64,000 bases of DNA, from positions 13,115 to 77,114 of the forward strand of contig CAAGID010000037.1 of assembly GCA_900769815.1 (NCBI GenBank), read 5' to 3'. The position numbers were made by a program, and so were the translations under genes. How positions within the stretch are numbered: the first letter of the stretch is position 1; the number at the start of each line of letters is the position of its first letter. The notes beneath the pieces are model-generated. The model worked only from the letters and a program-made list of their open reading frames with translations, was not told where the DNA came from and did no database searches. Positions 1,487 through 18,789 of this stretch are shown here, piece after piece. Source of the stretch: Clostridia bacterium. GTDB lineage: Bacteria > Bacillota > Clostridia > Christensenellales > QALW01.

Positions 1487-1506
1487 TATCGGAATTTGCG
1501 TTTTTT

Positions 1507-1540
1507 GTGCGCTTACTTCGGTAGGCGCACTTTTTGTTTT
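1507..1540 (+). terminator. Strong intrinsic terminator inside the leader, 11 nt upstream of the adhesin RBS
   Basis: 10-bp stem gtgcgcttac/gtaggcgcac with a ttcg tetraloop (1517-1520), followed by tttttgtttt. Confidence 0.7.
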
Positions 1541-1552
1541 AGGGGGGTCTTT

Positions 1553-4500: not shown

Positions 4501-7500
4501 TCGTGATCAAAAAGTATATGCTAAATGGACGCCCAATTCTTATACGGCAACACTTGATTATAGTGGTGGACAAAATTGCCCGACAGTAGAATTTATTTCT
4601 CAAGGAAATGTAATTAAAACTGTTGATCTTTATAAAGATACTACCTTGAGTTATTTTACACCCGAAGCTCCCGCTGCTAACTTAAAGTTTGCTGGTTGGT
4701 ATACAAATTCATCATGCACAACTTTGTTCAACTTTAATGGAATTGTTAACTATGATGTTACTGTATACGCAAAATGGGTTTCCGTTAACACCAATTATGA
4801 ATATGTTTCTTTGGGTGGTTCCTATGACGTTTCGATTTCTGGTATTGAGAGCCAATATCTTGCCATTATGTCGCCCATAACGCAAACAGTGACGGTTTCG
4901 TCTGTTTCGGGTTTGGATTTATTTGGTTCGATATATGATTCCAATATGAATTTGCTGTACAGTTGTGATGATATTTCTGATGAAAATTTGGATTTCTCAA
5001 TTACATTTGTAATAGAAGCAGGAAAAGTATATTACATTGCTTATAAAGCAAACCAAGTATTTGTGAGCGGAAACGCAACAATTAATATATCGGGCACACA
5101 AAATCCCAGCACCTTTATTACCGGAGATTACACCGAAATTATTGAGTGTGTAAATGTAATATATGCATCCTCTTTTGCATTGCCTATTCCAAAACGAAAC
5201 GGATATGTTTTCCGGGGATGGTTTGACGAAAACGATACGCAAATCACAGATGGAACATGGAATTTTGCTGCTAATAAGACTCTGACGGCAAAATGGGCTG
5301 AATGTTATACAGTTATATTCAAAGATTTTGCTGGAAATATTATCTCTATCAAAACACATTGCTTCGGAGAAGAGATAGTAGCTCCTGAGCCGCCCGCAAA
5401 AGCTCCTGATGAAACATATATTTATCATACTAAGTGGGACAATGACTACACAGGAATCTGCACCGGTGACGCAATATATTCTCCGACTTTCGATAAGGAA
5501 TATATTGAGTACACTGTGATTTTTGCTGATGAAGATGGTACGGAACTTTCGAGAGTAAACTACCATTGGGGAGATGCCGTAACCCCTCCCGACACTCCTG
5601 CCAAGGATGCAGACAAGACTTATACCTACACCTTCAAAGGTTGGGATAAGGATGTGGTTGACTGTGCCGGAAATGCAACCTATACGGCAACCTACACATC
5701 TACCTATATTCAATACACAGTCGTATTCGAGAACTGGGATGGGACAATCCTCTCCACAAAGAATTATCATTATGGTGATGCTATAACTGCTCCTGCCAAT
5801 CCCACTAGACCTAGTGATAATACTTACAGCTACACTTTTACTGGTTGGGATAAGGAATTGGTCTGTGATGGTAATATGACCATAACAGCTATATATTCAT
5901 CGCCCTATAACGAATATACTGTTATTTTTAAGAATTGGAATGGCGTAGTTCTATCAACAAAAGCATACCACTATGGTGATAAGGTAATTGCACCAGCAAA
6001 TCCGACTAAAGCATCAGATAATATTTATAAGTACATCTTTGCGGGCTGGGATAATGAAGTTGTGAATTGTGAAGGTAATACAACTTACACGGCAACATAT
6101 ACACCCTCATATATTAATTATACGGTTGTGTTCAAGGATTGGGACGGTGCTGAAATAAGCAGTAACACTTATCACTGGGGAGAAACAGTAACCATACCTG
6201 CCAATCCAACCCGCCCGTATGATGAAGATTACATTTACGCCTTCGTTGGCTGGGATAAGACAATTACCTCTTGCAATGGAAATGCAGTTTATACTGCTAT
6301 ATATAGCAAGACAGCAATTGCGGTTACATCCATTGCTATCACCACAAAGCCAAATAAACTTAATTACCTTGAAGGCGATTCTTTTGATAAGACGGGTATG
6401 GTCGTTACTGCATACTATAACAATAATACTTCTGCTGTTGTGACTGATTACACCGTTAATGGTTATACATCTACGCCCGGTAGCAAGACTATTACGGTGT
6501 CGTATTTGGGCAAAGAAGATAGTTTCTCTGTGACTGTTGATGGAATGCTAACATATATCTATGACGACATAAATCTTACAGCAACAGTAAATAGATGCGA
6601 GAAAAGTGCAACTGCAATAATTATTCCAGCTACAATTGTTAAAAATGGTAAAACCTATAATGTAACAAGCATAGGAAATGAGGCATTTTTAAATTGTTAC
6701 GAAATAACAAGCGTAATTATTCCCAACAGTGTAACTAATATAGGTGACCAAGCGTTTTTTTATTGCAAAGAATTAACAGAAATTACAATTCCCAACAGTG
6801 TAACGAATATAGGCAACTGTGCTTTTTCTTATTGTGAAAAATTAACAAATGTAATTATCCCAAATAGTGTAACAAATATAGGGCCTTCTGCATTTTCCTA
6901 TTGTAAAGGGTTAACAAGCATTGAAATCCCTAATAGCGTAACAAGTATTGATTACAATGTATTTGGTAGTTGTACAAATCTTACAAGCGTAACGATCCCG
7001 CATAGTGTAACAAGTATAGGTGAGAATGCATTTAATTATTGCACGAGTTTGAAAAGCGTAACGATCCCAAATAGCGTAACAAACATAGAAAACGGCGCAT
7101 TTAGGGCTTGCTATCAATTGACAGATGTAACAATAGGTAGCGGAGTGAAAAACATAGGCGATTATGCGTTTGCGTCTTGTAGTTGGCTTACTGGAGTTTG
7201 GTATACAGGCAGTGCCACAGATAGAGAAAAAATTTCCATTGGAATTGAAAACAATCCAATAACAAACTTGTGGTGGCATTGCAATACCTGTGTAGGGGAT
7301 CATACATATTCTGGTGATTGCGATGCATTTTGCGATAATTGTGAATGGATAAGAGAAACAGATATAGAGCACACATATACTAATAATTGCGATACTTCGT
7401 GCGATATATGCCAAGAAGATGGACGTGTGTTACCTCACAATTACGATAGTGATTGTGATACGGTGTGTAATGATTGTTCAGAAATAAGAGAGCCATTAGC

Positions 7501-7756
7501 AACACATTATTATGACAATGATAAAGATATGGATTGTAATGAATGCGGTTATGAGAGATTTACCCCAGGCGACATTGACGGTGTAGAAGGCATTTCTGAC
7601 CGCGATGCAGTATATCTGTTATATCACACGTTCTTGCCTGGTTCATATCCGGTAAATCAGGATTGCGACTTTAATAACGATGGTGAAATTAACGATAAAG
7701 ACGCTATTTACTTGCTTTATCACACGTTCTTACCTGAATCATATCCCATAGGTTAA
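1553..7756 (+). CDS. Giant secreted repeat adhesin with C-terminal dockerin (2,067 aa)
   Basis: Start moved to ATG 1553 (RBS agggggg; signal peptide MKRFLSLALTIALLL). At least ten Listeria-Bacteroides (Flg_new)-type repeats (YTITYNxNGG...GYTFxGW). Also a CxxCxGxG array, two PPC-like domains, five tandem ~66-aa repeats, a Big_3-like domain and BspA-type LRRs (IPNSVTNIGxxAFxxC). The dockerin has two loops, DIDGVEGISDRDAVYLL and DFNNDGEINDKDAIYLL. Confidence 0.85.
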   Translation: MKRFLSLALTIALLLSIMPTGVFSIATSAEAVSSTDTKFTITWRNSNGELLGTTSCDYGETPIFGGETPVRESDSQYTYTFTGWQPEIKAAYSDADYIAVYSKTARNSYTITYNANGGSNAPASQTKAPGQTIKLNSSKPTWQNHVFLGWSCAYNDTLYQTGENFNVDADVTLYAVWKDPCSYCDGKGGSYTYSTCTTCNGTGDGSIVKCAFCYGTGRKCANCGNISVTIIQGLGQVCSSCGSTSRRNCASCNGVGTWTTDYCTTCGGDGTTSSYSSCYWCDGDKHVETSFSRYVYLYSDDSLTGSNTIYTKRPYQLIVPSKTGYTFIGWFDSPDGGTQYTNGEGVSLSVCPDSPSRNLYAHWSLNYYTITYDCEQNVNTHDMPVVYTVEDENFILNSQSPREHYYFYWSVLDTKVENFDTSIAQDVVVKGVWDPINYTITYNLDGGTANNRTTYNIETDTFSLVEPTKAGYIFTGWTGSNGNVPETNVTISTDQLQNLSFTANWTIAVYTITYELFGGENSLKNPTTFTINDNVVLKNATKDYYTFAGWYLDSAFTKKITNLNGYHGDLTLYARFVSNSFTATFDPEEGHLAHYNITLVWGGNLQNEVISYKTGDTFYPYKVDVPSRSGYLFNGWYLDSSFSTPLPETYTIASDKKLYAKWFKQSVTNAEELTLGDYRYTCYGDASKTVCFYVSPEHSGETVVSYYLRGYKYDGVMERKSEFSIKDLTTGITLFSKNTLNGSGYTVNSFTSITLVAGHTYQLYTYTINNSYFNGEADIIISIGEDPFPPTFVSSAFATYEEKYGETIQYPVPIRKDYDFVGWYDIDGNPISSVWDYTTDKTFYPQWKLHEFSINYNLNGGINSSLNAISYTVVDSTITLLDPSKEEYTFLGWYTDSNFRNQITEINCEDRLDYTLYAKWISDFFGVNYELYGGVNNPSNKQHIGRTEEFTLLDPTREGYTFAGWYLESYYSTKVTTLYGSAHRDQKVYAKWTPNSYTATLDYSGGQNCPTVEFISQGNVIKTVDLYKDTTLSYFTPEAPAANLKFAGWYTNSSCTTLFNFNGIVNYDVTVYAKWVSVNTNYEYVSLGGSYDVSISGIESQYLAIMSPITQTVTVSSVSGLDLFGSIYDSNMNLLYSCDDISDENLDFSITFVIEAGKVYYIAYKANQVFVSGNATINISGTQNPSTFITGDYTEIIECVNVIYASSFALPIPKRNGYVFRGWFDENDTQITDGTWNFAANKTLTAKWAECYTVIFKDFAGNIISIKTHCFGEEIVAPEPPAKAPDETYIYHTKWDNDYTGICTGDAIYSPTFDKEYIEYTVIFADEDGTELSRVNYHWGDAVTPPDTPAKDADKTYTYTFKGWDKDVVDCAGNATYTATYTSTYIQYTVVFENWDGTILSTKNYHYGDAITAPANPTRPSDNTYSYTFTGWDKELVCDGNMTITAIYSSPYNEYTVIFKNWNGVVLSTKAYHYGDKVIAPANPTKASDNIYKYIFAGWDNEVVNCEGNTTYTATYTPSYINYTVVFKDWDGAEISSNTYHWGETVTIPANPTRPYDEDYIYAFVGWDKTITSCNGNAVYTAIYSKTAIAVTSIAITTKPNKLNYLEGDSFDKTGMVVTAYYNNNTSAVVTDYTVNGYTSTPGSKTITVSYLGKEDSFSVTVDGMLTYIYDDINLTATVNRCEKSATAIIIPATIVKNGKTYNVTSIGNEAFLNCYEITSVIIPNSVTNIGDQAFFYCKELTEITIPNSVTNIGNCAFSYCEKLTNVIIPNSVTNIGPSAFSYCKGLTSIEIPNSVTSIDYNVFGSCTNLTSVTIPHSVTSIGENAFNYCTSLKSVTIPNSVTNIENGAFRACYQLTDVTIGSGVKNIGDYAFASCSWLTGVWYTGSATDREKISIGIENNPITNLWWHCNTCVGDHTYSGDCDAFCDNCEWIRETDIEHTYTNNCDTSCDICQEDGRVLPHNYDSDCDTVCNDCSEIREPLATHYYDNDKDMDCNECGYERFTPGDIDGVEGISDRDAVYLLYHTFLPGSYPVNQDCDFNNDGEINDKDAIYLLYHTFLPESYPIG

Positions 7757-7772
7757 CAAAAGGAGAAAAATT

Positions 7773-9005
7773 ATGAAAAAGATTTTATCAGTACTTATTT
7801 GTTTTGCATTAATTTTTAGTTTATCAATAACCGCATTCGCTGCTTCTGCTACATTAAGCGGCGTACCTGCTGAGATTAAAAAGGATTCAACCGCAACTAT
7901 TACAGTTAGCGTAAGCGGAAGTCCTTCGGCTTCTTCGGCTTTAGTACAAGTGACTTTAGGCAGTGGTCTTGAACTTGTTTCGGGCGAGTGGAAAAAAGAT
8001 GGTCTTATGAAAGATTTTAATGCTTCTTCCAAAGAAGGTGTTATTGCACTTTCTTCAGCAGGCAGCTTTGACGGAACCGTATTCAGCTTTGTTGTTAAGG
8101 GTAAGACTGTTTCTTCAACTGCACAAAGCATTACCGTTAAATTGACCTTTAAGAACGGCTCAAGCGAGGTGGGTACAGTAAACGCAAGCAAAACTGTTAA
8201 GGTAGTTTGTGCAAGCCACTCCTACGGTGCATACACTAAAAAAGATAGCTCTAATCACACCCGCACTTGTTCTGTTTGCCAAAGCGTTGAAACAAAGGCT
8301 CACACTTGGAACGGTGGTACAGTAACAAAGAATGCAAACTGTAAGGAAGCAGGTAGCAAAACTCTTACTTGCACCGCTTGTAATGCAACTAAAACTGAAA
8401 CTATTGCAAAAACAAGCAATCATACTTATGGCGCTTGGACTCAGACAAAAGCTCCTACTTGTACTGCAAAAGGCAGTGAAAAACGTACTTGCTCAACTTG
8501 CCAAAAGGTAGAAACAAGGGATGTTAAGGCATTAGGTCACAAAATGAGCGCACCTACAATCACAAAACAGGCCACTTGTAAAGAAGAAGGCTCACAAGAA
8601 GGCGTTTGCTCAGTATGTAAAACAAAATCAGTTCAGGCAATTCCAAAGCTTGAACATAAGTTCGGTGAATTTACTGTAACAAAGGAAGCAACCCAAACAG
8701 AAACCGGTCTTAAAAAAGCAACTTGTACCGTTTGTGGTGAGGTTAAAGAAGAAGTAATACCTGCACTTTCTGCACCAGTAACACCTACACCTGAAGCAAC
8801 ACCAGAAGTTACACCTGATGTAGAACCAACTGTTGAACCAACTGTTGAACCAACTGTTGAACCAACTGTTGCACCTGTTGAACATACACCTAGTCCTCAA
8901 ACTAATGGTATTGCTTGGTGGTGGACGTTGGTTGCTGGCGTTATTGGCGCAGGAATCGGTTTTGCAATAGGCATAACCATTAAAGGAAAGAAAAAAGAAG
9001 AATAA
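7773..9005 (+). CDS. Tail-anchored surface protein with N-terminal cohesin-like domain, Cys-rich ~40-aa repeats and a Pro/Thr/Glu linker
   Basis: Signal peptide, then a ~130-aa beta-rich domain resembling cohesin (by eye). 4-5 repeats of H-x-[YW]...C-x3-G...C-x2-C. (EPTV)x4 linker. C-terminal TM helix plus KGKKKEE tail. No LPXTG motif. Confidence 0.6.
   Translation: MKKILSVLICFALIFSLSITAFAASATLSGVPAEIKKDSTATITVSVSGSPSASSALVQVTLGSGLELVSGEWKKDGLMKDFNASSKEGVIALSSAGSFDGTVFSFVVKGKTVSSTAQSITVKLTFKNGSSEVGTVNASKTVKVVCASHSYGAYTKKDSSNHTRTCSVCQSVETKAHTWNGGTVTKNANCKEAGSKTLTCTACNATKTETIAKTSNHTYGAWTQTKAPTCTAKGSEKRTCSTCQKVETRDVKALGHKMSAPTITKQATCKEEGSQEGVCSVCKTKSVQAIPKLEHKFGEFTVTKEATQTETGLKKATCTVCGEVKEEVIPALSAPVTPTPEATPEVTPDVEPTVEPTVEPTVEPTVAPVEHTPSPQTNGIAWWWTLVAGVIGAGIGFAIGITIKGKKKEE
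8823..8870 (+). repeat. Perfect 12-bp tandem repeat x4 (gaaccaactgtt), coding for EPTV x4
   Basis: Four identical in-frame units read directly in the sequence. Confidence 0.95.
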
Positions 9006-9007
9006 TA

Positions 9008-9047
9008 AAAAAGGTTTTTCTGCGCTGACACAGAAAAACCTTTTTTG
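9008..9047 (+). terminator. Rho-independent terminator
   Basis: 12-bp stem aaggtttttctg/cagaaaaacctt followed by a T-run. Confidence 0.85.
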
Positions 9048-9122
9048 TATGGTTATAGTTTTTGTGCAAATGTTTGTTATTAAAAAATCTGTAAAAAGAT
9101 AGTTTGAAATTTATAATGTCAG

Positions 9123-9144
9123 TTGCAAACTTTCTTTTAATACT
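9123..9144. repeat. Right copy of perfect 22-bp inverted repeat (IR-R)
   Basis: ttgcaaactttcttttaatact is the reverse complement of 468-489. Confidence 0.9.
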
Positions 9145-9166
9145 AGCTTATTCTATATTTATAAAG

Positions 9167-9200
9167 AATCCGTGCCTTGTTTTAAGACACGGATTTTTTT
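9167..9200 (+). terminator. Hairpin plus T-run just outside IR-R
   Basis: Stem aatccgtg/cacggatt followed by ttttttt. Confidence 0.6.
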
Positions 9201-9392
9201 CTACAAAAAATTCTTTAGATATATAAAATTTTGAAAAGTTTTACTGTATAGTACTATAGATGGTTTTTGGGAGGTGAATAAATTTGATTTTAAAAAATTA
9301 TAAAAGGAGTGATAGTTTAAATGATTTAGTGTTGATTTGAATTTGGATATTGTATTTAAAAAATTTGAAATTAATGAAAAGGAAATTTGATT

Positions 9393-9851
9393 ATGGGTAA
9401 TTATTATGATGGAAAGGTTTCTATGAAACCGGATATGAGTAAGATGGATTACATTTGTGAGGATGAATATTCTTTTGAAGTACCTGAGGTTTATTTTGAA
9501 AGTACGGGCGAGGAAAATGAAAAAAATGTATTTGATTGGAACTCTGATTCTATATTGGTTGTTAAAAACAAACGAGTAATTAAATATACGGATACTATTT
9601 TCTCGAAAATACTCTTAAAAGATACAAAGGGTAAAACGGAGTGGTTAGACGGAAGAATTGCTAATATCTTAGGTGTTGATGTTGATGATGCTGAAGACAT
9701 TCGTGAGTCAAAAGAATATAGAATCGAAGAATACGATCTTGAAAAATCACAGAAAAGAATATATAAAGTTGTTCTTGATGAAACTGTAGATATGAGTGAT
9801 ATTGATATTTGTGAAATAAAAAGAATTATTGAAGAAAAAAATAATGATTAA
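9393..9851 (+). CDS. Hypothetical acidic protein
   Basis: ORF with ATG 9393 preceded by aaaaggaaa. No recognisable domain. Confidence 0.5.
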   Translation: MGNYYDGKVSMKPDMSKMDYICEDEYSFEVPEVYFESTGEENEKNVFDWNSDSILVVKNKRVIKYTDTIFSKILLKDTKGKTEWLDGRIANILGVDVDDAEDIRESKEYRIEEYDLEKSQKRIYKVVLDETVDMSDIDICEIKRIIEEKNND

Positions 9852-9952
9852 TAGCTTACAAATATAAAGATAATTAAGTTGTAATAAAATAGTAGAGCTT
9901 TAGTGTAATTATAACGCTAAAGCTCTATTTTTATATATAAAACTAATTACTG

Positions 9953-10426
9953 TTATGAGTGCTGTTCTATATGTTTTTCTAAATCTGAGACAAGCTCTTC
10001 TGCAGTATGTTCTAAATTAAATATATCTATGATATACTGGTGCGCGGACTTATATTCGTTTTCATATATGATTTGAATTAGATTTAATAATATGTCTAAG
10101 TTTATGTCTATGTGTTCTGAAAAAAGTTTTGCAATTAAGGGGATGGGGAGTATATCTATAAAATAATAAGGATGTGCACTACAAAAAGATTTAAGCAGTA
10201 AATGATCATCATACGGGCTAGGAAAACTTTCATCAAAATCTGCACACAAGGCATTAAGTTCACACCAGAGGTTGAAGAAGTTCTGTGTGCTTATAAAATG
10301 TTTGTTGTGAGCACGGCAATGAACAATAATAGCATAAAATATTTTAAATTGTTTTGTGTTGAGCTTGCTGAGAGATTCTTCAATAAGTCTTTGTGAATCT
10401 GATTTTGCATTATTAGTTGTGTTCAT
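9953..10426 (-). CDS. Hypothetical protein, paralogue 1 of an element-specific small-protein family
   Basis: 157 aa. Shares the L-x2-L-N...H-x-x-F core and a C-terminal I-x-x-I...Y motif with ORFs 11474..11824 and 11970..12317. Confidence 0.55.
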   Translation of the reverse strand: MNTTNNAKSDSQRLIEESLSKLNTKQFKIFYAIIVHCRAHNKHFISTQNFFNLWCELNALCADFDESFPSPYDDHLLLKSFCSAHPYYFIDILPIPLIAKLFSEHIDINLDILLNLIQIIYENEYKSAHQYIIDIFNLEHTAEELVSDLEKHIEQHS

Positions 10427-10605
10427 AATTGTCTTCTTTCTGATAGCAATAAATCTATCTTTAACTTTTTAGTTTGTTCAATTAATTTAGCAATTATTTT
10501 TGTTTTGTTTTAAATTTCAAAAAACTTTACTGTATAGTATAGTGAAAGGCAAGTAGATTATTTATAAATAAATATAAAAATCTAAAATCTACTTGTAATT
10601 ATTAT

Positions 10606-10998
10606 ATGAAAAGTAAATTAGATAAGATGTTTGAAAGTGATTTCATCAGGCTTCCCAGACCGTTTGTCAGAAAGTTTAATTTGAACACGGCGGTTATGTT
10701 ATCAGAAATATATTCTGAATATACATACTGGAAAGAACGTAACAGTTTACAGCAAGGGGGTTGGTTCTTCAGTACGGTTGAAAATATGTATTATAATACC
10801 GGGTTAAGTAAACATCAACAATTAGTTTCGTGTAAAGAACTTGAAACATATGGTATAATCAAAGTCAAGCATCACGGAATGCCCAAGAAAAGATATTTTA
10901 AGTTTGATCCGGCGGCGTTTAACAAATTATGTAATGATTTTAGATTAAATTCAAATTCAAATGAAGAAGAAAATGAAACGTTTCAGTTTTCTTTTTAA
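10606..10998 (+). CDS. RepA_N-like (replication initiator A N-terminal, winged-helix) protein
   Basis: FIRLPRPFVRKF...LSEIYSEYTYWKERN...GWFFSTVENMYYNTGLSKHQQLVSCKELETYGIIKVKHHGMPKKRYF matches the RepA_N layout by eye. A GC hairpin terminator follows at ~11004-11030. Confidence 0.5.
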   Translation: MKSKLDKMFESDFIRLPRPFVRKFNLNTAVMLSEIYSEYTYWKERNSLQQGGWFFSTVENMYYNTGLSKHQQLVSCKELETYGIIKVKHHGMPKKRYFKFDPAAFNKLCNDFRLNSNSNEEENETFQFSF

Positions 10999-11200
10999 TA
11001 ATTTTGCTCGCGCAAAGCGCGGGCTTCTTTTAATGTATTTATGTAGAATTGGAGGGGCAATAACAGGGCGTAAAAGAGCAGATATATATAATAATTAGAG
11101 GTTCGATTTTTGATGTATAATAGTTTAATTTTTAGACGTATTTGGTTGATATATTAAATATAAATAATAATAAGAAATAATAATAAATTAATAATATTTA

Positions 11201-11232
11201 TATTATAAATTTTTTAGCAAAAATTTATAATA
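11201..11232. repeat. 14-bp perfect AT-only palindrome (possible origin/DUE) in a ~200-bp AT-rich spacer
   Basis: tattataaattttt (11201-11214), loop tagc, aaaaatttataata (11219-11232). Confidence 0.8.
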
Positions 11233-11473
11233 ATTCTATTTAGTAAAATAAGATAATTTTGTTAGTAAATTAAATAAAAATAAAGTAGTTGTTCAAAAAA
11301 TGAACAACTGGTAGAAGTGGAGGAATAGAGGTAATCAAAATTTGTTGAGGCTGTTATATCTTAATATGGTATAAAATAAGAAAGACTGCTGTTTGTGTCA
11401 GCAATCTTTCTATGACGTGCTTTTATAACTTTTATGAGCATTCATTTATTTTAGCTAATATTCTGTGCTGTAT

Positions 11474-11824
11474 TTAAAACAAATCGTTATCGAAAACATT
11501 TACGTTTGAGTAATAGTGATTTACGATTTCTTGCACGGTAAATCTGCATTTTATCAATTCAACGGCAGAAATTAAACTCATATAGTTGTCGGTGTAAGCT
11601 ATTAAACTATCTATCAGTTGCTTTTTAAATGATTTGTCATCGTTAATCTTGAAAGGATTTTTATCAAAGGATTCTAAAAAATCATTAAACTTATCGTAGG
11701 TAGTAATGTTGAAGTGTTGATGATTAATTTTATAGTAAAATAAAACTAAATCGTGCATCTCAACACTATTAAGAGATTCTAATTTTTGAGTCAATGTTTC
11801 AATTATTTGTTCAGTTGCTTGCAT
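11474..11824 (-). CDS. Hypothetical protein, paralogue 2 of small-protein family
   Basis: 116 aa. LESLNSVEMHDLVLFYYKINHQHFN aligns with the equivalent segments of the two other paralogues. Terminator-like hairpin at ~11380-11412. Confidence 0.55.
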   Translation of the reverse strand: MQATEQIIETLTQKLESLNSVEMHDLVLFYYKINHQHFNITTYDKFNDFLESFDKNPFKINDDKSFKKQLIDSLIAYTDNYMSLISAVELIKCRFTVQEIVNHYYSNVNVFDNDLF

Positions 11825-11969
11825 ATATACATTCTTCTTTCTGTCTAATTATTTTGAATAACAACAGAGCACAAAATATTGTCATTCATATAATTTAGCT
11901 GAAGATAGCTCGCGTAGAAAACAAAACTACGCGAGTGTAAAAAAGTGATGGTAAATTATTTGATAAGCG

Positions 11970-12317
11970 TTATGAATATAAAAGGGTATTAATTATCTGT
12001 TCGAAAGAATAGTTATTTTTTATCATTTCTATAGTTTGAATAACTGTTGGATATTTTGATTCTAATGTAAATTCGGTAGTTAATAGGATTATTAATGATT
12101 TGAATGTAATAGGAACTCTATTACATGGGGTATCAAGATACAAATTGATAAAATTCATATGTATTTGTTCGGGCATAAAGAAATTGTAATGAGGGTTAAG
12201 ATACATATATAGGTTAAATACGGTTTCAAGGTTCTCGTGGGTAAGAGTGTTAAGTTGGTTTGTTATTAGGGATTTGTAGTTGTTTTTAAGATTTTTACTC
12301 ATTTTTTTATAACTCAC
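11970..12317 (-). CDS. Hypothetical protein, paralogue 3 of small-protein family
   Basis: 115 aa. LNTLTHENLETVFNLYMYLNPHYNF, and a C-terminal IEMIKNNYSFEQIIN that resembles VELIKCRFTVQEIVN of paralogue 2. Confidence 0.55.
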   Translation of the reverse strand: MSYKKMSKNLKNNYKSLITNQLNTLTHENLETVFNLYMYLNPHYNFFMPEQIHMNFINLYLDTPCNRVPITFKSLIILLTTEFTLESKYPTVIQTIEMIKNNYSFEQIINTLLYS

Positions 12318-12503
12318 TTTCTTTAGTTGTTATTATAAAATACAGTAAAATATTTTAAGATTTTGTATTTTTTAAAAAATAAATAAAAAAATCTCAACAA
12401 ACATTATGCCTGTTAAGATTTTTCGTTGAAAGCGCGCTTACAAACAAATAAAAACACGTTATAATTTCATTATAATAACGTGCTTAAAAGGAATTATTAA
12501 ATT

Positions 12504-13700
12504 ATGAGTAAAAAGAAATCTAACGGTGAAGGTTCTATTACAAAACGTTCTGACGGTCGTTATATGGGACGTTATACTCTAGACGGTAAACGCTATGCAA
12601 TATACGGTAATACTTTTGAAGAGGTCAGGGTGAAATTAACAGAAGTATTGGCAAGGAAAGATAAAGGAGCTCATATTGCAACTTCAGGATACACTTTATC
12701 ACAATGGCTCAGAGAATGGCTGGAAATATATGCACTTCCTACGGTCAAACAATCTACGTACGTATCATATGAAAGCTATGCTCGGCTTCATTTAGAACCG
12801 GTACTTGGAACAATCAAACTAACAAGTCTATCTGTTGAACAGTTTCAACGATTCTTTAATCAAAAGCAAAAATCACTTTCTCCTAAATCTTTACGCAATA
12901 TATATAATATGCTACATAACTGTCTTGAACAAGCAATAGTTAGTGGTTATTTGCAATGTAATCACTTACTTGGAGTGAAACTTCCGCCTGTTACTAAAAA
13001 AGAAATAACTATTCTTAGTGTGAAAGAACAAAATGCCCTTCACTCTGCTGCCAATGCATCAAGCACTCTTGCAGCGTTTGGAATTATCTTCACACTTAGC
13101 ACTGGCATTCGGCTTGGTGAGTTGCTTGGTTTGCAATGGGGTGATGTAGATTATACAAATCATACTATACATATCCGACGAACTGTCGGACGTCTGCTTA
13201 AAGTTGATGAATCGGGCAAACTAATACAAAAGAAAGACGGAACACAAACAACAGAAATTGTAACCCGAACGCCTAAATCAATAACTGCTCAACGGGTTAT
13301 TCCATTATTTCCTGAAGTATGGAACGACCTTATGATTTATCGTGATAAGCAAGAAACAACGTTAAGCAAGTTGGATATCTCTTTAGCATCCAGTACACCA
13401 ATCTTTGCTACACCTTTGGGCATCATTTATGAACCGCGAACATACGAGGACTTATTTAAACGAACATTAAAAGAAGCAAATCTTCCTAATATTAATTTCC
13501 ATGCCCTACGCCACACCTTTGCCACAAGAGCATTGGAAGCCGGCATGGATATTAAAGTGCTTTCATCTATACTGGGCCATGCACAAGCCTCCACAACATT
13601 AAACCTATATGCCCACGCTTTACCGGACCATAAAAGAGATAGTATGCAGAAGATGGGAGCGTTTTATGGTGTTGGCCAATCGAAGATAATTGGTAAGTAA
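12504..13700 (+). CDS. Tyrosine site-specific integrase (phage integrase family)
   Basis: N-terminal arm-binding-type segment GSITKRSDGRYMGRYTLDGKR. C-terminal HALRHTFATRALEAGMDIKVLSSILGHAQASTTLNLYAH with the catalytic R..H-x-x-R..Y pattern. Confidence 0.9.
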   Translation: MSKKKSNGEGSITKRSDGRYMGRYTLDGKRYAIYGNTFEEVRVKLTEVLARKDKGAHIATSGYTLSQWLREWLEIYALPTVKQSTYVSYESYARLHLEPVLGTIKLTSLSVEQFQRFFNQKQKSLSPKSLRNIYNMLHNCLEQAIVSGYLQCNHLLGVKLPPVTKKEITILSVKEQNALHSAANASSTLAAFGIIFTLSTGIRLGELLGLQWGDVDYTNHTIHIRRTVGRLLKVDESGKLIQKKDGTQTTEIVTRTPKSITAQRVIPLFPEVWNDLMIYRDKQETTLSKLDISLASSTPIFATPLGIIYEPRTYEDLFKRTLKEANLPNINFHALRHTFATRALEAGMDIKVLSSILGHAQASTTLNLYAHALPDHKRDSMQKMGAFYGVGQSKIIGK

Positions 13701-13727
13701 TCTTTTTTGTGTTAGCAATCTTGTCAA

Positions 13728-14891
13728 TCAAAAAGGAATATCTTCGTCTTTTTCCTCTTGTCGTTTGATAATTTCTTTACCCTTAAAATATGCAGCTCCG
13801 AATATATCAATAATTTCCTTATCTTCCCAGAATTCAATCCGCTCTTCAAATGCTCTGCAAAAATCAGCATCACCAGATTCTAATGAAGATTTTATATCAG
13901 ATATTTGCCAATCACTATATAAGTTAATATAAGAAACAAGTGCATGAGAAAAATATTTAAATACATATGCTTTATAGTCTGACCCCTTTTTTGTGTTTTG
14001 GAGTAGAGAATAGACTAAATTTTTTTTGTTTGCTAAAAACTCTAATTTGTTTGATACCCAAGTTGCTAGTGAACCAGCGGAATTACATTTAGGAAGATAA
14101 TTTTCAAAACGCGAATCATACTCATAAACAATTTCTCCTAAAGAAATAGATTTATTTATCAAATCCTCAATCCTTAATTGCGCTAACTTATCAATGTTTG
14201 CATAGGTTATGTCCATAAAATAGTGAAAATACATACGTAAAAATTTGTCATCTTTACATTTCATAAGGCTAACGCTAACACTTTTGCAAAAATCAGTTTG
14301 CTCCAATTTAGAGAGAGAATCAAATAATTCTTTGATAAAAATGCTTAAACAATTTTGTGGCAGTTGGGTCCTTTTTTCATACAATTCAAGCAATAAGTTA
14401 TAACGCTTTTTGTTGGGGATTTCTTTTAATAAAAGTTCGGCATATTCTTTCGTGCTTGTAAAATCTTTGTCAAGTAATAATTCCATAATATCATCAATTT
14501 TAGTTTTTCCACCGGAACTATCAATCCTATTTAACAAATAATTTATGTATGAAATTATAACTTCGGAGTCATCTTGGGTAAAAAAAGTTTTTTCGTGGCT
14601 TAAAGGATTTTTTACATATTGCATAATTCCTTTAAGTGAAAAAGCTATGCCTTGTTGAATATCTTTTTCTGTTGTAGTTTCATTTTTGTTTATTTTGATA
14701 GAAGGATTATTTCCTAAAAGAGCTGATTCCACAAGTTTTGTACCATCTTTATCTTCAATTCCGCTTTTGTCACGAAGTAATTCGTTGGCGCAAAATACTG
14801 CGTCACGAACAGCCTCCGTATAGTCCCCTTTTTCGTAATGAGCACTTATCATTTTCCATAAGTCTTCACGCAATTTTTCTTGTGATAACAT
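13728..14891 (-). CDS. TIGR02391/Hypoth_Ymh-like N-terminal domain protein with ~260-aa helical C-terminal region
   Basis: Residues 1-125 follow the Ymh pattern: YEKGDYTEAVRDAV...DGTKLVESAL...GIMQYVKNPLSHEK...YINYLLNRID. Second gene of the operon (40-nt gap, RBS aggatga). Confidence 0.55.
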   Translation of the reverse strand: MLSQEKLREDLWKMISAHYEKGDYTEAVRDAVFCANELLRDKSGIEDKDGTKLVESALLGNNPSIKINKNETTTEKDIQQGIAFSLKGIMQYVKNPLSHEKTFFTQDDSEVIISYINYLLNRIDSSGGKTKIDDIMELLLDKDFTSTKEYAELLLKEIPNKKRYNLLLELYEKRTQLPQNCLSIFIKELFDSLSKLEQTDFCKSVSVSLMKCKDDKFLRMYFHYFMDITYANIDKLAQLRIEDLINKSISLGEIVYEYDSRFENYLPKCNSAGSLATWVSNKLEFLANKKNLVYSLLQNTKKGSDYKAYVFKYFSHALVSYINLYSDWQISDIKSSLESGDADFCRAFEERIEFWEDKEIIDIFGAAYFKGKEIIKRQEEKDEDIPF

Positions 14892-14931
14892 AACCGTATT
14901 TCATCCTGTTCTATATAATTAAATCAATATT

Positions 14932-16335
14932 TTATGCTTTTAATTTGTATGTGCAATGCTTATTGGTGCAGATTTTACATATTGAACAATCGGCAGAACT
15001 CTCTTGCTCGGGACATTTGCAAGGCTGTAATTTTTGACGCAAATCATTTTCACGTTTATTTCTTAATGGTATTTTTCCTTTATACAAATTAAAAAATTTT
15101 CTAAAATTGCAATTAGCAAATGTATCATCATTGATATTCTCATACAGTAATCCCAAAGCTAAATACAGAATGTTTTTTTCAGGTTCTTGTAATAAAACAT
15201 GCTCTATAAATTTAATGATACCTAAAACATCTTGATAACTATTGTTTTTCAATTGAGTATATCTTGTGTATACAATATTTGGGTCCTCTTTTTCATACAT
15301 TATTAAAAATGCTTCGCTATATTTCCAATAATCATTTGTATTTATTTTTTTGCATTGGGCAATGTGTACTTTTGCCGATGCAACATCTCTATATTTTAGG
15401 AAAAGTAATTTTGCATAATTCAAATGAAAAGGATACTGGCCTGGGGAAATTTTGTCTGCATCAAGAGTTTTGTTTTCAGCCATATCCAAAAGAGCAGGCG
15501 CTCTAGAATCAAGCCATTCCACAATATGTAAATTGGCTTCATAGAAAAGGAGGCTTTGCAGAGTCCTACATATTAAATTGTACATTGTATGAGTGCCATC
15601 TAATGAACTGTATAATGAATCCAAGACGGCATGGGCTTGCTCTATCGAATTAGACATATAATATGATACGGCTATTATATATTCGGAGAGAATTCTGAGG
15701 TCGCCAGATACACTATTTATAAATTCTATTTTCGCATCTTTGTTATAGGGTTTGAAACGAATAGGTTTTGAAATAATTGGAACATTTTCACTTAAGAATT
15801 CTTGTGCGCTACTTGGTATGTCTGTATTTGATAATTTAATATTTAATTTGGTATTGAATTGCGTAGGATTATCAGAATTGTCGGTTTCGATAAAAAAGTT
15901 TGCAAAAAAACAGCAATTGGTTTCTGATAACAATTTCGACATCGCTTTATCATCGTTTTTGTTGTACTTTTTTATACGATTTGCATTAAGAAAAATGGGC
16001 ATAGTTTTTAAATGCGAATCCGTTAAGCACTCTTGAAAGTGTTCCCTAATTGAACGAACAAAATCTTTATACAACTTGTTTGTTGGAGTATCGATGATTA
16101 TCAAAACGCCTACATGTCCCTTTTTGCAATGAGGAAGTTTATTTACACATATAACGACTATACAATAAAAAACAAAAATTGCTAAGGATAAAAAAAGACA
16201 TATATATAATGGAATCCAACTTTCTGTATCCTTAGGGACAAAAGGAAGACACGCGAAAACCAAAGTGGCAAAAAGAAACGGAATACTCACCGGTTTAAAA
16301 ATTGTTTTTTCAAAAATTTTTTCTGTAGAGTTCAT
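14932..16335 (-). CDS. Membrane protein: two N-terminal TM helices, an alpha/beta segment, TPR-like helical repeats and a C-terminal Cys cluster
   Basis: TM segments FKPVSIPFLFATLVFACLPFV and WIPLYICLFLSLAIFVFYCIVVICV. C-terminus CKCPEQESSADCSICKICTNKHC. No family recognised. Confidence 0.55.
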   Translation of the reverse strand: MNSTEKIFEKTIFKPVSIPFLFATLVFACLPFVPKDTESWIPLYICLFLSLAIFVFYCIVVICVNKLPHCKKGHVGVLIIIDTPTNKLYKDFVRSIREHFQECLTDSHLKTMPIFLNANRIKKYNKNDDKAMSKLLSETNCCFFANFFIETDNSDNPTQFNTKLNIKLSNTDIPSSAQEFLSENVPIISKPIRFKPYNKDAKIEFINSVSGDLRILSEYIIAVSYYMSNSIEQAHAVLDSLYSSLDGTHTMYNLICRTLQSLLFYEANLHIVEWLDSRAPALLDMAENKTLDADKISPGQYPFHLNYAKLLFLKYRDVASAKVHIAQCKKINTNDYWKYSEAFLIMYEKEDPNIVYTRYTQLKNNSYQDVLGIIKFIEHVLLQEPEKNILYLALGLLYENINDDTFANCNFRKFFNLYKGKIPLRNKRENDLRQKLQPCKCPEQESSADCSICKICTNKHCTYKLKA

Positions 16336-16355
16336 AAATTAAATCACCAACATAA

Positions 16356-16384
16356 ATTATATCGCTTTATGATGAATTTTGCAA
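16356..16384 (-). promoter_or_regulatory. Consensus promoter (TTGCAA-17-TATAAT, minus strand) for the two-gene operon
   Basis: -35 at 16379-16384 and -10 at 16356-16361 (read on the minus strand). Start codon at 16335. Confidence 0.6.
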
Positions 16385-16469
16385 GAGGAAGAAACTAAAT
16401 ATACTAATATGTATACTTGCTCATATATTGATACTACGATCTTTATCCAAACAACAAATGTCAAATATC

Positions 16470-16493
16470 ATTGGTGTCAAAATTGGTGTCAAA
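16470..16493. repeat. 12-bp tandem direct repeat x2 (attggtgtcaaa), with a third tgtcaaa at 16459
   Basis: Read directly. On the minus strand this gives three TTGACA-containing boxes upstream of the operon promoter. Confidence 0.9.
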
Positions 16494-16526
16494 AACACGA
16501 TTTAAATGTAAAAATAAAAAAAGAAA

Positions 16527-16555
16527 AACCTTGTAAACGTAGTGTTTACAAGGTT
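16527..16555 (-). terminator. Terminator of tRNA-fMet
   Basis: 12-bp stem aaccttgtaaac/gtttacaaggtt, followed by a T-run on the minus strand. Confidence 0.75.
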
Positions 16556-16560
16556 TAATT

Positions 16561-16637
<77 letters not shown>

Positions 16638-16666
16638 ATATAGTGTAATCTCTTGATTACGTTTAT

Positions 16667-16695
16667 ATTATATGCTATAAAAAGTATTTTGTCAA
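16667..16695 (-). promoter_or_regulatory. Consensus promoter TTGACA-17-TATAAT for tRNA-fMet
   Basis: Minus-strand ttgaca (16690-16695), 17-nt spacer, tataat (16667-16672). Confidence 0.7.
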
Positions 16696-16851
16696 TATCT
16701 TTTTTTTGAAAAGTTTGACGAAAAAAAGGAGGTATAAAAAATGGATTTTTTGCCTGTATTATATTTTTACCATAAAAACTATATCTCAAAAAAGGATAAT
16801 AGCAAGTCCAATGCAGAAAGATGCTCCAAAGAATTTTCTTTGGAGCATTTT

Positions 16852-18789
16852 TTATGCAACTTCTTTTTTTGTTAAGACCTGAATAAGTACCACGGAACCT
16901 ACAAGTAACAGGCCGATAACATCGGTTAAAATACCGGGATATATAAGTAACAGACCGCCTATTAAGGAAAGTATGCGTTCATACCACTTCATATGTTTTA
17001 AGAAGTAGCCTTCAAGGGAAGCTGAAACACCAAACATACCGATAAGTGAGGTTACACATATAAGAACAACTTCCCAAACAGTTGTATCGATAAACAGCAT
17101 TGCAGGGTTAAGTGCGAAGATATAGGGCACGATAAATGCACCGATAGCAAGCTTTGTTGAAGTAATTGCCGTTTTCATCGGGTTTGCCCTGGCGATTGCC
17201 GCACCTGCATATGCCGCCAAAGCTACGGGAGGCGTAAGGTCGGCAACTATACCGAAATAGAAAACGAAGAAGTGTGCCGCAATCATAGGTACGCCCATTT
17301 TTACAAGAATAGGTGCACAGGTTGCTGCCATAATGCAATAGTTTGCCGTGGTGGGCACGCCCATACCTAAAATGATACAGCAAATCATTGTAAGGAAAAG
17401 TGCAATAATTACCTGATTTCCTGCAATGGCAACGATACCGTTAAACACTATGTATGCAAGACCGGTTGCGGAAATTAAACCTGCAATAATACCTGCAATA
17501 CCGCAAGCGGCGGCAATAGTAATCATACCTTGACCACCTGCTGCAAGAGCTTCTACAAGTTTTAAGGGAGTCATACGTGTTTCTTTATTGAACATACTTA
17601 CGAAAATTGAGGCAATAATTGCAAGTGCGGCTGCATATGCAATTGAGCGTGTGCTTGTTGCAACAAGAACGATAAGTAAAATAAGGGGCAAAAGAAGATA
17701 AGTTTTTGTAAGCAACGGCTTAAGCTTAGGCAATTCTTCTTTTGATAAACCGCGCAAGCCTTCCTTTTTAGCCTCAAGATGAACTGTGATAAACACGCCT
17801 GCAAAATATAAGAATGCAGGAAGAATTGCCTTTGTAACGATACTTGAATAAGGTACGCCAACAGTTTCTGCCATTAGGAATGCGGCAGCACCCATAATGG
17901 GAGGCATTATCTGACCGCCCGTTGAAGCGGATGCCTCGGCTGCTGCGGCAAATTCAGGCTTATAACCTGTTCTCTTCATTAAAGGAATTGTAACTGCACC
18001 TGAGCCAACGGTATTGGCAACAGATGAGCCTGAAACCATACCCTCAAGAGCAGAAGCAACAACGGCAACTTTTGCAGGGCCTCCTGAAAATCTTCCTACA
18101 AGTGAGTTTGCTATCTTTATAAAGAAATCTGCAATACCTGTTCTCTCCAAAAACGCACCGAAAATAATAAAGATAACTATATATTTTGAACATACGTTTA
18201 CAGGTGTTGACAATATACCTTCCTTTGAATAGAAAAGCGTACGGACAAAATCAGTAATACGTTTTAAGAAGTCGGGATTAGTTGAACCCCATATAAGTGC
18301 ATATACCATCAATATGCCTGCCACTATTAAAATGGGCAAGCCAACACTTCTTCGGCATAGTTCGGCCAGGGAGATAATTCCCAAGATACCGATTATCATC
18401 TGAACAGTATCTATCCTGAAGTTTGCAATAATTGTTGATGCGTTAAAGCAAAAATACAAAAATGCACCGGTACCTATAATCATAAGCAAAATATCGTACC
18501 AGGGCATATAGTTTGCGCGCTGAGTACCTTTTTTTGCAGGGAAAACAAGGTATCCGATGAACATTATAAAAGCCATAAAGGAAGTAAGTCTTACTTCATC
18601 AAGCCACGTTGCGAAAAATGTTACGTATATGCAAAACAGAGAGAACGTTGCAAGGAAAGACGTAATAATCCATTTAGGCACGCCTGTCCATATACGTGTG
18701 TTGGATTCACGGTCATATTTTTTCATAACTGCATCGACGTCCATTGGCGTATCGTTTTCAGGTGCAGCTTTTTTCTTAAAAAATGACAT
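16852..18789 (-). CDS. TRAP transporter fused permease (4TM/12TM type)
   Basis: ~645-aa polytopic protein next to a TAXI receptor. Start moved to ATG 18789 with AAGGAGG 7 nt upstream. Confidence 0.85.
   Translation of the reverse strand: MSFFKKKAAPENDTPMDVDAVMKKYDRESNTRIWTGVPKWIITSFLATFSLFCIYVTFFATWLDEVRLTSFMAFIMFIGYLVFPAKKGTQRANYMPWYDILLMIIGTGAFLYFCFNASTIIANFRIDTVQMIIGILGIISLAELCRRSVGLPILIVAGILMVYALIWGSTNPDFLKRITDFVRTLFYSKEGILSTPVNVCSKYIVIFIIFGAFLERTGIADFFIKIANSLVGRFSGGPAKVAVVASALEGMVSGSSVANTVGSGAVTIPLMKRTGYKPEFAAAAEASASTGGQIMPPIMGAAAFLMAETVGVPYSSIVTKAILPAFLYFAGVFITVHLEAKKEGLRGLSKEELPKLKPLLTKTYLLLPLILLIVLVATSTRSIAYAAALAIIASIFVSMFNKETRMTPLKLVEALAAGGQGMITIAAACGIAGIIAGLISATGLAYIVFNGIVAIAGNQVIIALFLTMICCIILGMGVPTTANYCIMAATCAPILVKMGVPMIAAHFFVFYFGIVADLTPPVALAAYAGAAIARANPMKTAITSTKLAIGAFIVPYIFALNPAMLFIDTTVWEVVLICVTSLIGMFGVSASLEGYFLKHMKWYERILSLIGGLLLIYPGILTDVIGLLLVGSVVLIQVLTKKEVA

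Follow-up and report, generated by a model that had tools for sequence, protein, structure and literature searches.

A Ymh-type HEPN gene and a membrane-anchored TPR-type gene at the cargo end of an integrase-bearing islet from a Clostridia bacterium

Two co-directional genes, here called gene 1 (467 aa) and gene 2 (387 aa), lie between a tyrosine integrase gene and an initiator tRNA gene in a 64-kb stretch of DNA from a Clostridia bacterium (contig CAAGID010000037.1 of assembly GCA_900769815.1), referred to below as the window. In a first-pass annotation they had been described as an orphan operon forming a candidate novel defence module. On balance, we lean towards the view that they are two independent accessory genes of the conflict type, which lie side by side at the cargo-holding end of a small islet with an integrase gene and are probably transcribed together from the promoter of gene 1. 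The claim of a novel two-gene defence system is weak, and the value of the locus lies in the two families taken separately: judged by its sequence, gene 2 is a K-for-R variant, detached from restriction-modification (R-M), of the known Ymh-HEPN kind, and gene 1 belongs, by the relatives found for its product, to an undescribed family of considerable size. As at least 158 homologues of gene 2 and 350 cluster representatives for gene 1 were found, the description as an orphan holds for neither gene.

Association of the two genes

The homologues of the two genes were found not to be syntenic, and the expectation of a conserved two-gene module was not borne out. In the search for gene 1 loci, a genome collection was scanned with the 10 closest sequences. 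Fourteen loci with gene 1 relatives (L001, L009–L014, L016–L020, L023, and L024) were examined, and none of them had a Ymh gene nearby as judged by tblastn (0/14). Likewise, no gene 1 relative was detected in the 16 gene 2 loci retrieved (L002–L008, L027–L032, and L036–L038), using tblastn for L002–L008 and Pfam gene lists for the later loci. Clustering of all neighbouring open reading frames (ORFs) revealed no partner gene shared among the 14 gene 1 loci, and the only assembly in which the exact pair of genes was found is ENA ERZ27229650, with its copy at NCBI. The locus encoding P0004 (L002), the only other copy of gene 2 with Lys at position 94 (K94, see below), has no gene 1 relative nearby, and its DNA homology to the window extends only from 14927 to 13752, i.e. 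from 36 nt before the gene 2 ATG to 24 nt before the end of the stop codon. Since this homology is limited to gene 2, it is likely that gene 2 moved as a single-gene cassette.

We propose that gene 2 encodes a latent HEPN ribonuclease (RNase) which, as expected from its family, would act by abortive infection (Abi). Its N-terminal HEPN domains would dimerise into an RNase site, by analogy to characterised HEPN proteins, and its helical C-terminal domain, about 260 aa long, would serve in regulation or sensing. Members of the family residing in R-M operons most likely form a second line similar to PrrC/RloC, in which RNA would be cleaved and the infection aborted when restriction is compromised. 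The window gene and its closest relative would have left the R-M context, with Lys taking the place of the catalytic Arg and selection being kept. Gene 1 would be a separate, sporadic single gene, the product of which is predicted to have an N-in/C-in anchor of two transmembrane (TM) helices; on the cytoplasmic side of the membrane, this anchor would hold an alpha/beta domain and a protein-binding solenoid of the TPR type.

Several points weigh against this proposal: i) the 40-nt gap, the lack of a terminator, and the lack of a promoter of its own for gene 2 are as compatible with an operon as with a chance juxtaposition, ii) gene 2 relatives are nearly always located past another defence gene and may thus depend on an upstream partner, iii) gene 1 holds this partner position in the window, iv) validated defence pairs consisting of a HEPN and a TM protein exist, including HEPN-TM on phage-inducible chromosomal islands (PICIs; mentioned in PMC11087260 and PMC12948488), v) any RNase activity, trigger, or phenotype is putative for the members of either family, vi) K94 may attenuate, retune, or abolish catalysis, and vii) the association of gene 1 with defence is weak, because several of its homologues have housekeeping flanks.

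A genuine two-component Abi module, in which the gene 1 protein would sense a phage or membrane cue or restrain gene 2, replacing the R-M role, and activation would lead to RNase activity and/or membrane damage, is rather unlikely in our judgement. It is favoured by the closely spaced, co-directional genes behind one strong promoter, by the habitual position of gene 2 homologues as the second gene behind a defence gene, by the typical use of TPR domains as protein-binding sensors, by the HEPN and TM pairs cited above, and by the purifying selection acting on the K94 lineage away from R-M. However, the pairing did not recur in either set of loci, the other K94 copy stands without a gene 1 relative, the breakpoint of homology lies just upstream of gene 2, and the gene 1 homologues have no constant partner. 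It is also unlikely, and slightly more so, that the membrane-anchored alpha/beta-TPR protein has replaced type I R-M as the sensor/regulator of the K-for-R Ymh-HEPN RNase in a new two-component system; if this were true, the gene 1 family would represent a new class of membrane-tethered immune sensor.

In PICIs, HEPN-TM reportedly comprises two genes (Fillol-Salom et al. 2022), which encode a HEPN and a transmembrane protein and are located together on a small integrase-bearing island. Compared by description, the likeness of the window pair to this system is formal only, consisting in a HEPN protein plus a TM protein; the window genes differ in that they co-occur nowhere else and that the TM protein has a large cytoplasmic part of the alpha/beta plus TPR type. 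No HEPN-TM match was obtained for gene 1 or gene 2 in a PADLOC 2.0.0 scan. As for the HEPN-MNT toxin-antitoxin systems, no nucleotidyltransferase match was found in gene 1 or any of the neighbours.

The Ymh-HEPN protein of gene 2 and its family

The Ymh domain, at first recognised by eye, was confirmed by profile searches. Residues 6–123 of the gene 2 protein match PF09509 (Hypoth_Ymh) with an E value of 3.2e-22 and 79.1 bits (cut-off 25) over profile positions 2–119 of 119, and TIGR02391 is matched with an E value of 1.2e-16 and 60.9 bits (cut-off 39.45). Ymh has been counted among the HEPN families, its Rx4-6H motif being conserved and its occurrence being given as 'in operon with R-M', and a role analogous to that of PrrC/RloC was proposed for it (Anantharaman et al. 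2013, PMC3710099). The initial view that the domain belongs to conflict or Abi-type loci is supported. The initial statement that no catalytic effector is present does not hold, as Ymh is a HEPN RNase-type domain (PMC3710099), and gene 2 likely carries a predicted RNase. For the same reason, gene 2 is likely to be the effector rather than the sensor, and the roles suggested initially (gene 1 as effector and gene 2 as sensor) are most likely reversed or unrelated. The helical C-terminal domain is conserved throughout the family, with nothing similar in Pfam or among the PDB sequences.

The active-site motif of the family has the consensus R-N-x-x-S-H. The gene 2 protein keeps N95, S98, and H99 and has K94 in place of the Arg, which is present in 116 of 120 homologues; Lys was found only in the window copy and P0004, the two others falling outside the motif search pattern. 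Because some accepted HEPN families lack the R of the motif (c2405 row; PMC3710099), the membership of gene 2 in the HEPN domain stands despite K94. Comparison of gene 2 with P0004 (83% identical) gave dN/dS values of 0.10 overall, 0.026 for the HEPN domain, and 0.096 for the C-terminal part. As these values are low and Lys is common to both copies, the K94 lineage does not appear to be decaying and the K variant appears to be maintained. The strong purifying selection suggests that gene 2 encodes a working protein, the activity of which may be attenuated or altered. In the clusters examined, a link to R-M is lacking only for the two K94 copies.

The gene 2 family comprises at least 158 proteins of 377–392 aa, which are 48–83% identical over their full length, and nine clusters were looked up for their genomic context. 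In five of these (P0063, P0107, P0076, P0034, and P0018), the Ymh gene is located directly past hsdR, at a distance of 12–14 nt, in a type I R-M operon with the order hsdR-(Ymh)-hsdS-x-hsdM, and the elements holding these operons carry serine or tyrosine recombinases. The Ymh gene of P0097 follows a 92-aa C-terminal remnant of hsdR, that of P0120 follows genes for an N6-methyltransferase (MTase) and a TIR protein, and P0004 and the window copy are without R-M; tblastn with the L003 proteins as queries gave no match to hsdR, hsdM, or hsdS in the 64-kb window. In L031 (4353–8161) and L032, an N6-MTase (587 aa), a TIR protein (253 aa), and the Ymh protein are encoded in place of type I R-M. Further riders are present between hsdR and hsdM of the Ymh-bearing type I R-M operons (L003–L008, L029, and L036–L038), namely a 72-aa ORF, HEPN_Cthe2314, RhuM, DUF559, DUF2971, and AbiH. 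The operons of this type behave as variable multi-toxin cassettes.

More distant relatives of the same length were also detected. One with 30% identity is encoded on the Bacillota plasmid pBpOF4-01, beside an N6-MTase, HsdS, and an integrase. Another, a Hypoth_Ymh protein of 383 aa encoded by the P2-like Escherichia phage vB_EcoM-813R9 (L034, 4959–6110), shares 22% identity over 81% of gene 2, and its gene sits between gpA and the portal gene gpQ. The gpA-gpQ locus is the P2 anti-phage hotspot, which holds old and tin (Rousset et al., PMC9122126). An identical match was found in the Klebsiella phage Kp4865-2.

Comparison with the Ymh family as described (PMC3710099) showed that the N-terminus of gene 2 matches the family models and that the context of type I R-M operons, mobile elements, and a phage defence hotspot is reproduced for its homologues, whereas the window copy differs in lying outside an R-M operon and in having K for the catalytic R. 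The gene 2 proteins form a sub-architecture of about 385 aa ending in the 260-aa helical domain, which is not among the Ymh fusions listed there (pMORC, AbiJ-NTD1, and AbiTii). They resemble PrrC/RloC, as discussed in the same paper, in that a predicted HEPN RNase lies inside type I R-M operons in 5/9 homologue clusters, and the likely common logic would be that of a latent toxin backing up restriction; unlike PrrC/RloC, the gene 2 protein has no ABC-ATPase N-domain, its HEPN domain is N-terminal, and the window copy has no R-M partner.

Tha of Staphylococcus aureus prophages is a tail-activated single-gene HEPN Abi protein of 301 aa with a C-terminal HEPN domain and a dedicated inhibitor, Ith (PMC11087260). 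Compared by description only, gene 2 is similar to Tha in i) encoding a HEPN protein, in its case a predicted RNase, as accessory cargo beside the integrase of a temperate element, ii) having a motif of the RNxxxH type, with K94 for the R, and iii) having a non-HEPN domain without a known fold as the presumed sensor, and differs in its N-terminal HEPN domain and its length of 387 aa. In the PADLOC scan, the Ymh-like HEPN domain of gene 2 was found to be shared with Aga_HEPN, which is associated with prokaryotic Argonaute (E 4e-12), and with PD-Lambda-3_B (E 8e-9). These matches cover only residues 8–129 and 19–102, respectively, leaving the C-terminal domain unmatched, and the Argonaute and PD-Lambda-3_A partners are absent at the window locus. 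Gene 1 and the integrase had no match in the same scan.

The membrane-anchored protein of gene 1 and its family

The initial reading of two N-terminal TM helices ahead of a cytoplasmic segment is supported by hydropathy, an AlphaFold2 (AF2) model, and the distribution of charges. Hydrophobic segments are centred near residues 24 and 54, and the model has helices at residues 17–32 and 41–65. In 100 family members, the K+R value is 2.95 after the second TM helix versus 0.77 in the loop; these charge statistics suggest an N-in/C-in topology and thus a cytoplasmic location for the bulk of the protein. The AF2 model, built with 100 sequences, had a predicted local distance difference test score (pLDDT) of 92.3 and a predicted TM-score (pTM) of 0.87, and that of the isolated alpha/beta domain had a pLDDT of 88.5. 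GHVGVLIIIDTP forms beta-strand 1 of the alpha/beta domain, which spans residues 75–198 in the model, and the all-helical TPR-like solenoid comes after this domain.

Foldseek searches of PDB with the alpha/beta domain gave a best E value of about 3e-3 with TM-scores below 0.4, the weak matches (FlgT, PelC, EutC, TolB-N, and Brix) being non-catalytic folds of the scaffold type. Assignments as TIR, PD-(D/E)xK, Toprim, or other enzymatic domains, considered from the strand order, were rejected because of these poor scores. The window protein deviates at three residues typical of the family in this domain, having N, P, and E instead of H170 (found in 88% of family members), E84, and K138, respectively. 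No catalytic signature was seen in the gene 1 sequence or model, and no nucleotide-sensor or enzymatic domain was found by Foldseek against PDB with either the full model or the alpha/beta domain.

The TPR-like repeats noted in the first reading of gene 1 are borne out by the AF2 model, by Foldseek, and by the relatives. In the model, residues 199–417 form 13 consecutive helices (H199–227 to H404–417) with pLDDT>90, and the top Foldseek matches of the full model are all generic TPR proteins (such as Tom70, CTPR, and IFIT; probability about 1, E only about 3e-3). The window protein itself has no match to the Pfam TPR models, and weak matches were obtained for a handful of the 100 relatives, with at most 6 for any single TPR model. 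Among the three folded regions, the TPR region is the most conserved and the TM segment the least conserved, and the best-conserved residues (W337, Y339, S340, A342, F343, Y347, Y359, and L390) are all in the TPR region, where they include the motif W337-x-Y-S-x-A-F-L-x-A-Y347. The Cys cluster reported for the C-terminus is present, but with x8 rather than x9 between its second and third Cys. It probably represents a zinc-ribbon-like tail, which has a low pLDDT in the model; C441, C450, and C453 are conserved in the 10 closest relatives, and 32 of the 100 family members have at least four Cys in the tail.

For the gene 1 family, an exhaustive HMMER search yielded 350 cluster representatives (50% identity) with E<=1e-3, of which 117 had E<=1e-10, and most of the matches listed are 430–480 aa long and aligned end to end. 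A word-indexed search recovered 2–3 proteins even with a profile, with one relative, P0002, sharing 40% identity. For gene 1 and 100 relatives, no curated family beyond weak TPR was found in Pfam, NCBIfam, or PADLOC. Tblastn of gene 1 against phage and plasmid collections gave no match, and neither profile searches against PDB sequences nor pattern scans of IMG/VR gave significant matches or relatives, respectively, for the gene 1 or the gene 2 family.

Some of the gene 1 homologues have housekeeping contexts and others have defence-type or mobile neighbours. Immediately adjacent defence-type genes were found in about 5 of the 14 loci and integrase/primase elements in 3. The defence-type neighbours are helicase+DUF2290, Fic/SoFic-like, a 987-aa SIR2 protein, a DUF1016 region, and a type II MTase; the mobile-element and toxin neighbours are RHS/PT-HINT toxins, IS3, integrases, and D5 primases; and the housekeeping neighbours of other relatives are phosphoglycerate mutase, a pyridoxal phosphate enzyme, GTPase, photolyase, ribonucleotide reductase, and an energy-coupling factor transporter. 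The best reading of gene 1 is that it encodes a binding or sensing protein tethered to the membrane, from a family of mobile elements or defence islands.

Three of these loci are worth noting. In L001 (3233–7864), the closest gene 1 homologue has as its neighbours a helicase+DUF2290 pair (PADLOC E 7e-234 and 2e-28), which is a validated anti-T7 system (PMC9122126), and a gene for a 471-aa protein without a Pfam match, the C-terminus of which reads like a PD-(D/E)xK nuclease (…DVIAKYG..IVIEIKG…), and the element carries PolA, a D5 primase, and an integrase. In L020 (5134–7260), the gene 1 relative is in frame with an upstream DUF1016_N/PDC-S02 region with no stop codon between them, and the resulting 708-aa ORF represents either a genuine fusion or read-through of a DUF1016 gene that is truncated; the 987-aa SIR2 (ThsA/Dsr2-like) protein (8904–11867) and an IS3 transposase are encoded adjacent to it. 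In L013, the gene 1 relative is convergent with an integrase gene, with only a terminator and no gene between them. A specific linkage between integrase and gene 1 was considered and rejected, because the integrases encoded in the window, in L013, and in L001 share only 23–27% identity, a level of generic tyrosine-recombinase similarity.

With its cytoplasmic domain placed after two TM helices at the N-terminus, the gene 1 protein recalls the SLATT proteins and the TM effectors of CBASS, Pycsar, and Thoeris, from which it differs in having no nucleotide-binding sensor domain, no signal-producing partner, and a TM segment that is the least conserved part. No match to the SLATT or 2TM-effector profiles of Pfam and PADLOC was found for the window protein, and one of the 100 relatives matches the '2TM Effector' model at E 0.0058, which is at the noise level. 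Nothing specific indicates the membrane-disrupting activity once suggested for gene 1. It is improbable that gene 1 alone is a single-gene defence or exclusion protein, acting, for instance, as a membrane-tethered sensor with TM oligomerisation that depolarises the cell or by superinfection exclusion, with gene 2 as an unrelated passenger. The sporadic distribution as single-gene insertions at variable loci, the defence-type and mobile neighbours, and the resemblance to known TM effectors would agree with such a protein, but against it stand the absence of database matches other than weak TPR among 100 members, the poor conservation of the TM region, the lack of a sensor or enzymatic domain, the failure of the searches used to find the family in phage and plasmid collections or IMG/VR, and the housekeeping flanks of several homologues. 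Very improbable is decaying or non-functional cargo, with a HEPN protein inactivated by R-to-K after loss of the R-M operon and a degenerate gene 1 lacking H170, E84, and K138: K94 against the prevailing Arg, the three deviations in gene 1, and the absence of hsdR, hsdM, and hsdS would suit it, but neither ORF is truncated, ribosome-binding sites and a promoter are present, the gene 2 dN/dS is low with the K variant maintained in both copies, and the gene 1 model has a pLDDT of 92.

Layout of the islet and implications

The general layout given in the first-pass annotation was reproduced (Table 1), including the lengths and spacing of the two ORFs, the consensus promoter ahead of gene 1, the integrase, and the tRNA-fMet neighbour. 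The stop codons of the integrase gene and gene 2 are exactly 27 bp apart, as had been stated, and no terminator-like site was detected by the signal scan between these genes or between gene 1 and gene 2; nor was a promoter-like site found directly upstream of gene 2. The scanned region contained 23 promoter-like sites versus 17.6 expected. Gene 1 and gene 2 are both intact, and co-transcription of the two is probable. The tRNA-Met is of the initiator type, as shown by its C1xA72 mismatch and by the three G:C pairs (GGG:CCC) of the anticodon stem, and gene 1 appears to be insulated from tRNA read-through, as the terminator lies between the two. The AT-rich island was also confirmed, with a GC content of 26–31% over approximately 9000–16500, save 37% in the 13001–14000 bin (the 3' half of the integrase gene), compared with 36–44% in the flanks.

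Table 1. Positions of the genes, signals, and protein regions in the window
Feature	Position	Strand	Remarks
Tyrosine integrase gene	12504-13700	+	PF00589 match, 1.4e-23; convergent with gene 2
Gene 2	13728-14891	-	387-aa ORF
HEPN (Ymh) domain, gene 2 residues 6-125	14517-14876	-	PF09509/TIGR02391
HEPN active-site motif K94-N-P-L-S-H99	14595-14612	-	codons read directly; family consensus R-N-x-x-S-H
Spacer of 40 nt (gene 1 stop to gene 2 ATG)	14892-14931	-	AGGA-type ribosome-binding site for gene 2
Gene 1	14932-16335	-	467-aa ORF
Cys cluster C-x-C-x8-C-x2-C-x2-C-x4-C, gene 1 residues 439-461	14953-15021	-	C439, C441, C450, C453, C456, C461
TPR-like helical solenoid, gene 1 residues ~201-417	15085-15735	-	AF2, Foldseek
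Cytoplasmic alpha/beta domain (b-a-b-a-b-b-a-b), gene 1 residues ~73-200	15736-16119	-	AF2
Two TM helices and short acidic outside loop, gene 1 residues ~15-64	16144-16293	-	hydropathy, AF2
Sigma-70-like promoter TTGCAA-17-TATAAT, ahead of gene 1	16384-16356	-	10/12 positions; consensus match only
Alternative gene 1 promoter site TTGACA-17-GATATT	16492-16464	-	consensus match
Terminator hairpin and T-run after tRNA	16556-16526	-	sole hairpin plus T-run found
Initiator tRNA-Met(CAT) gene	16561-16637	-	RF00005, 59.3 bits
tRNA-Met promoter	16695-16667	-	12/12 consensus

An Rfam scan of 8500–17500 detected the tRNA only, and no att-type direct repeats of the tRNA 3' end were found around the islet. 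A 16-nt direct repeat, TTTTGAAAAGTTTTAC (9229–9244) and TTTTGAAAAGTTTGAC (16704–16719), flanks the islet with a borderline E value of 0.054; if it is real, the tRNA-fMet gene and its promoter would fall within the element. At 16470–16494 on the minus strand, downstream of the tRNA terminator and ahead of the promoter of gene 1, two perfect copies of TTTTGACACCAAT form a direct tandem repeat, after which comes a third TTGACA. This repeat may represent an operator or an arm site for the integrase, and no enrichment of its motif was seen in the rest of the window. The AT-rich islet also contains five small ORFs of 115–157 aa without a Pfam match (9387–12317), among which no replication, packaging, or regulator gene was recognised with Pfam. 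Closer to the start of the window are a serine resolvase gene (591–1298) and a gene for a 2086-aa surface-type protein with Listeria-Bacteroides repeats, BspA-type leucine-rich repeats, and Big_3 (1496–9005 together with what follows), after which comes a 410-aa ORF, in which 12-nt tandem repeats at 8789–8872 encode a stretch rich in T, E, P, and V.

To our knowledge, no member of the Ymh-HEPN sub-family of about 385 aa has been studied experimentally. The present analysis delineates it as a coherent and abundant group inserted directly past hsdR in the type I R-M operons carried by mobile elements of gut Clostridia, with distant relatives occupying the gpA-gpQ defence hotspot of P2. Through gene 1, a large family of proteins without a match in Pfam, NCBIfam, or PADLOC has come to light, the structure of which is predicted with confidence, yet with an alpha/beta domain that has no confident counterpart in PDB. 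The Ymh-HEPN sub-family bears on the long-standing proposal that HEPN proteins embedded in R-M operons are PrrC-like back-ups, and gene 2 of the window provides a natural experiment in this respect, having been released from R-M and having exchanged its active-site Arg for Lys while still being under selection.

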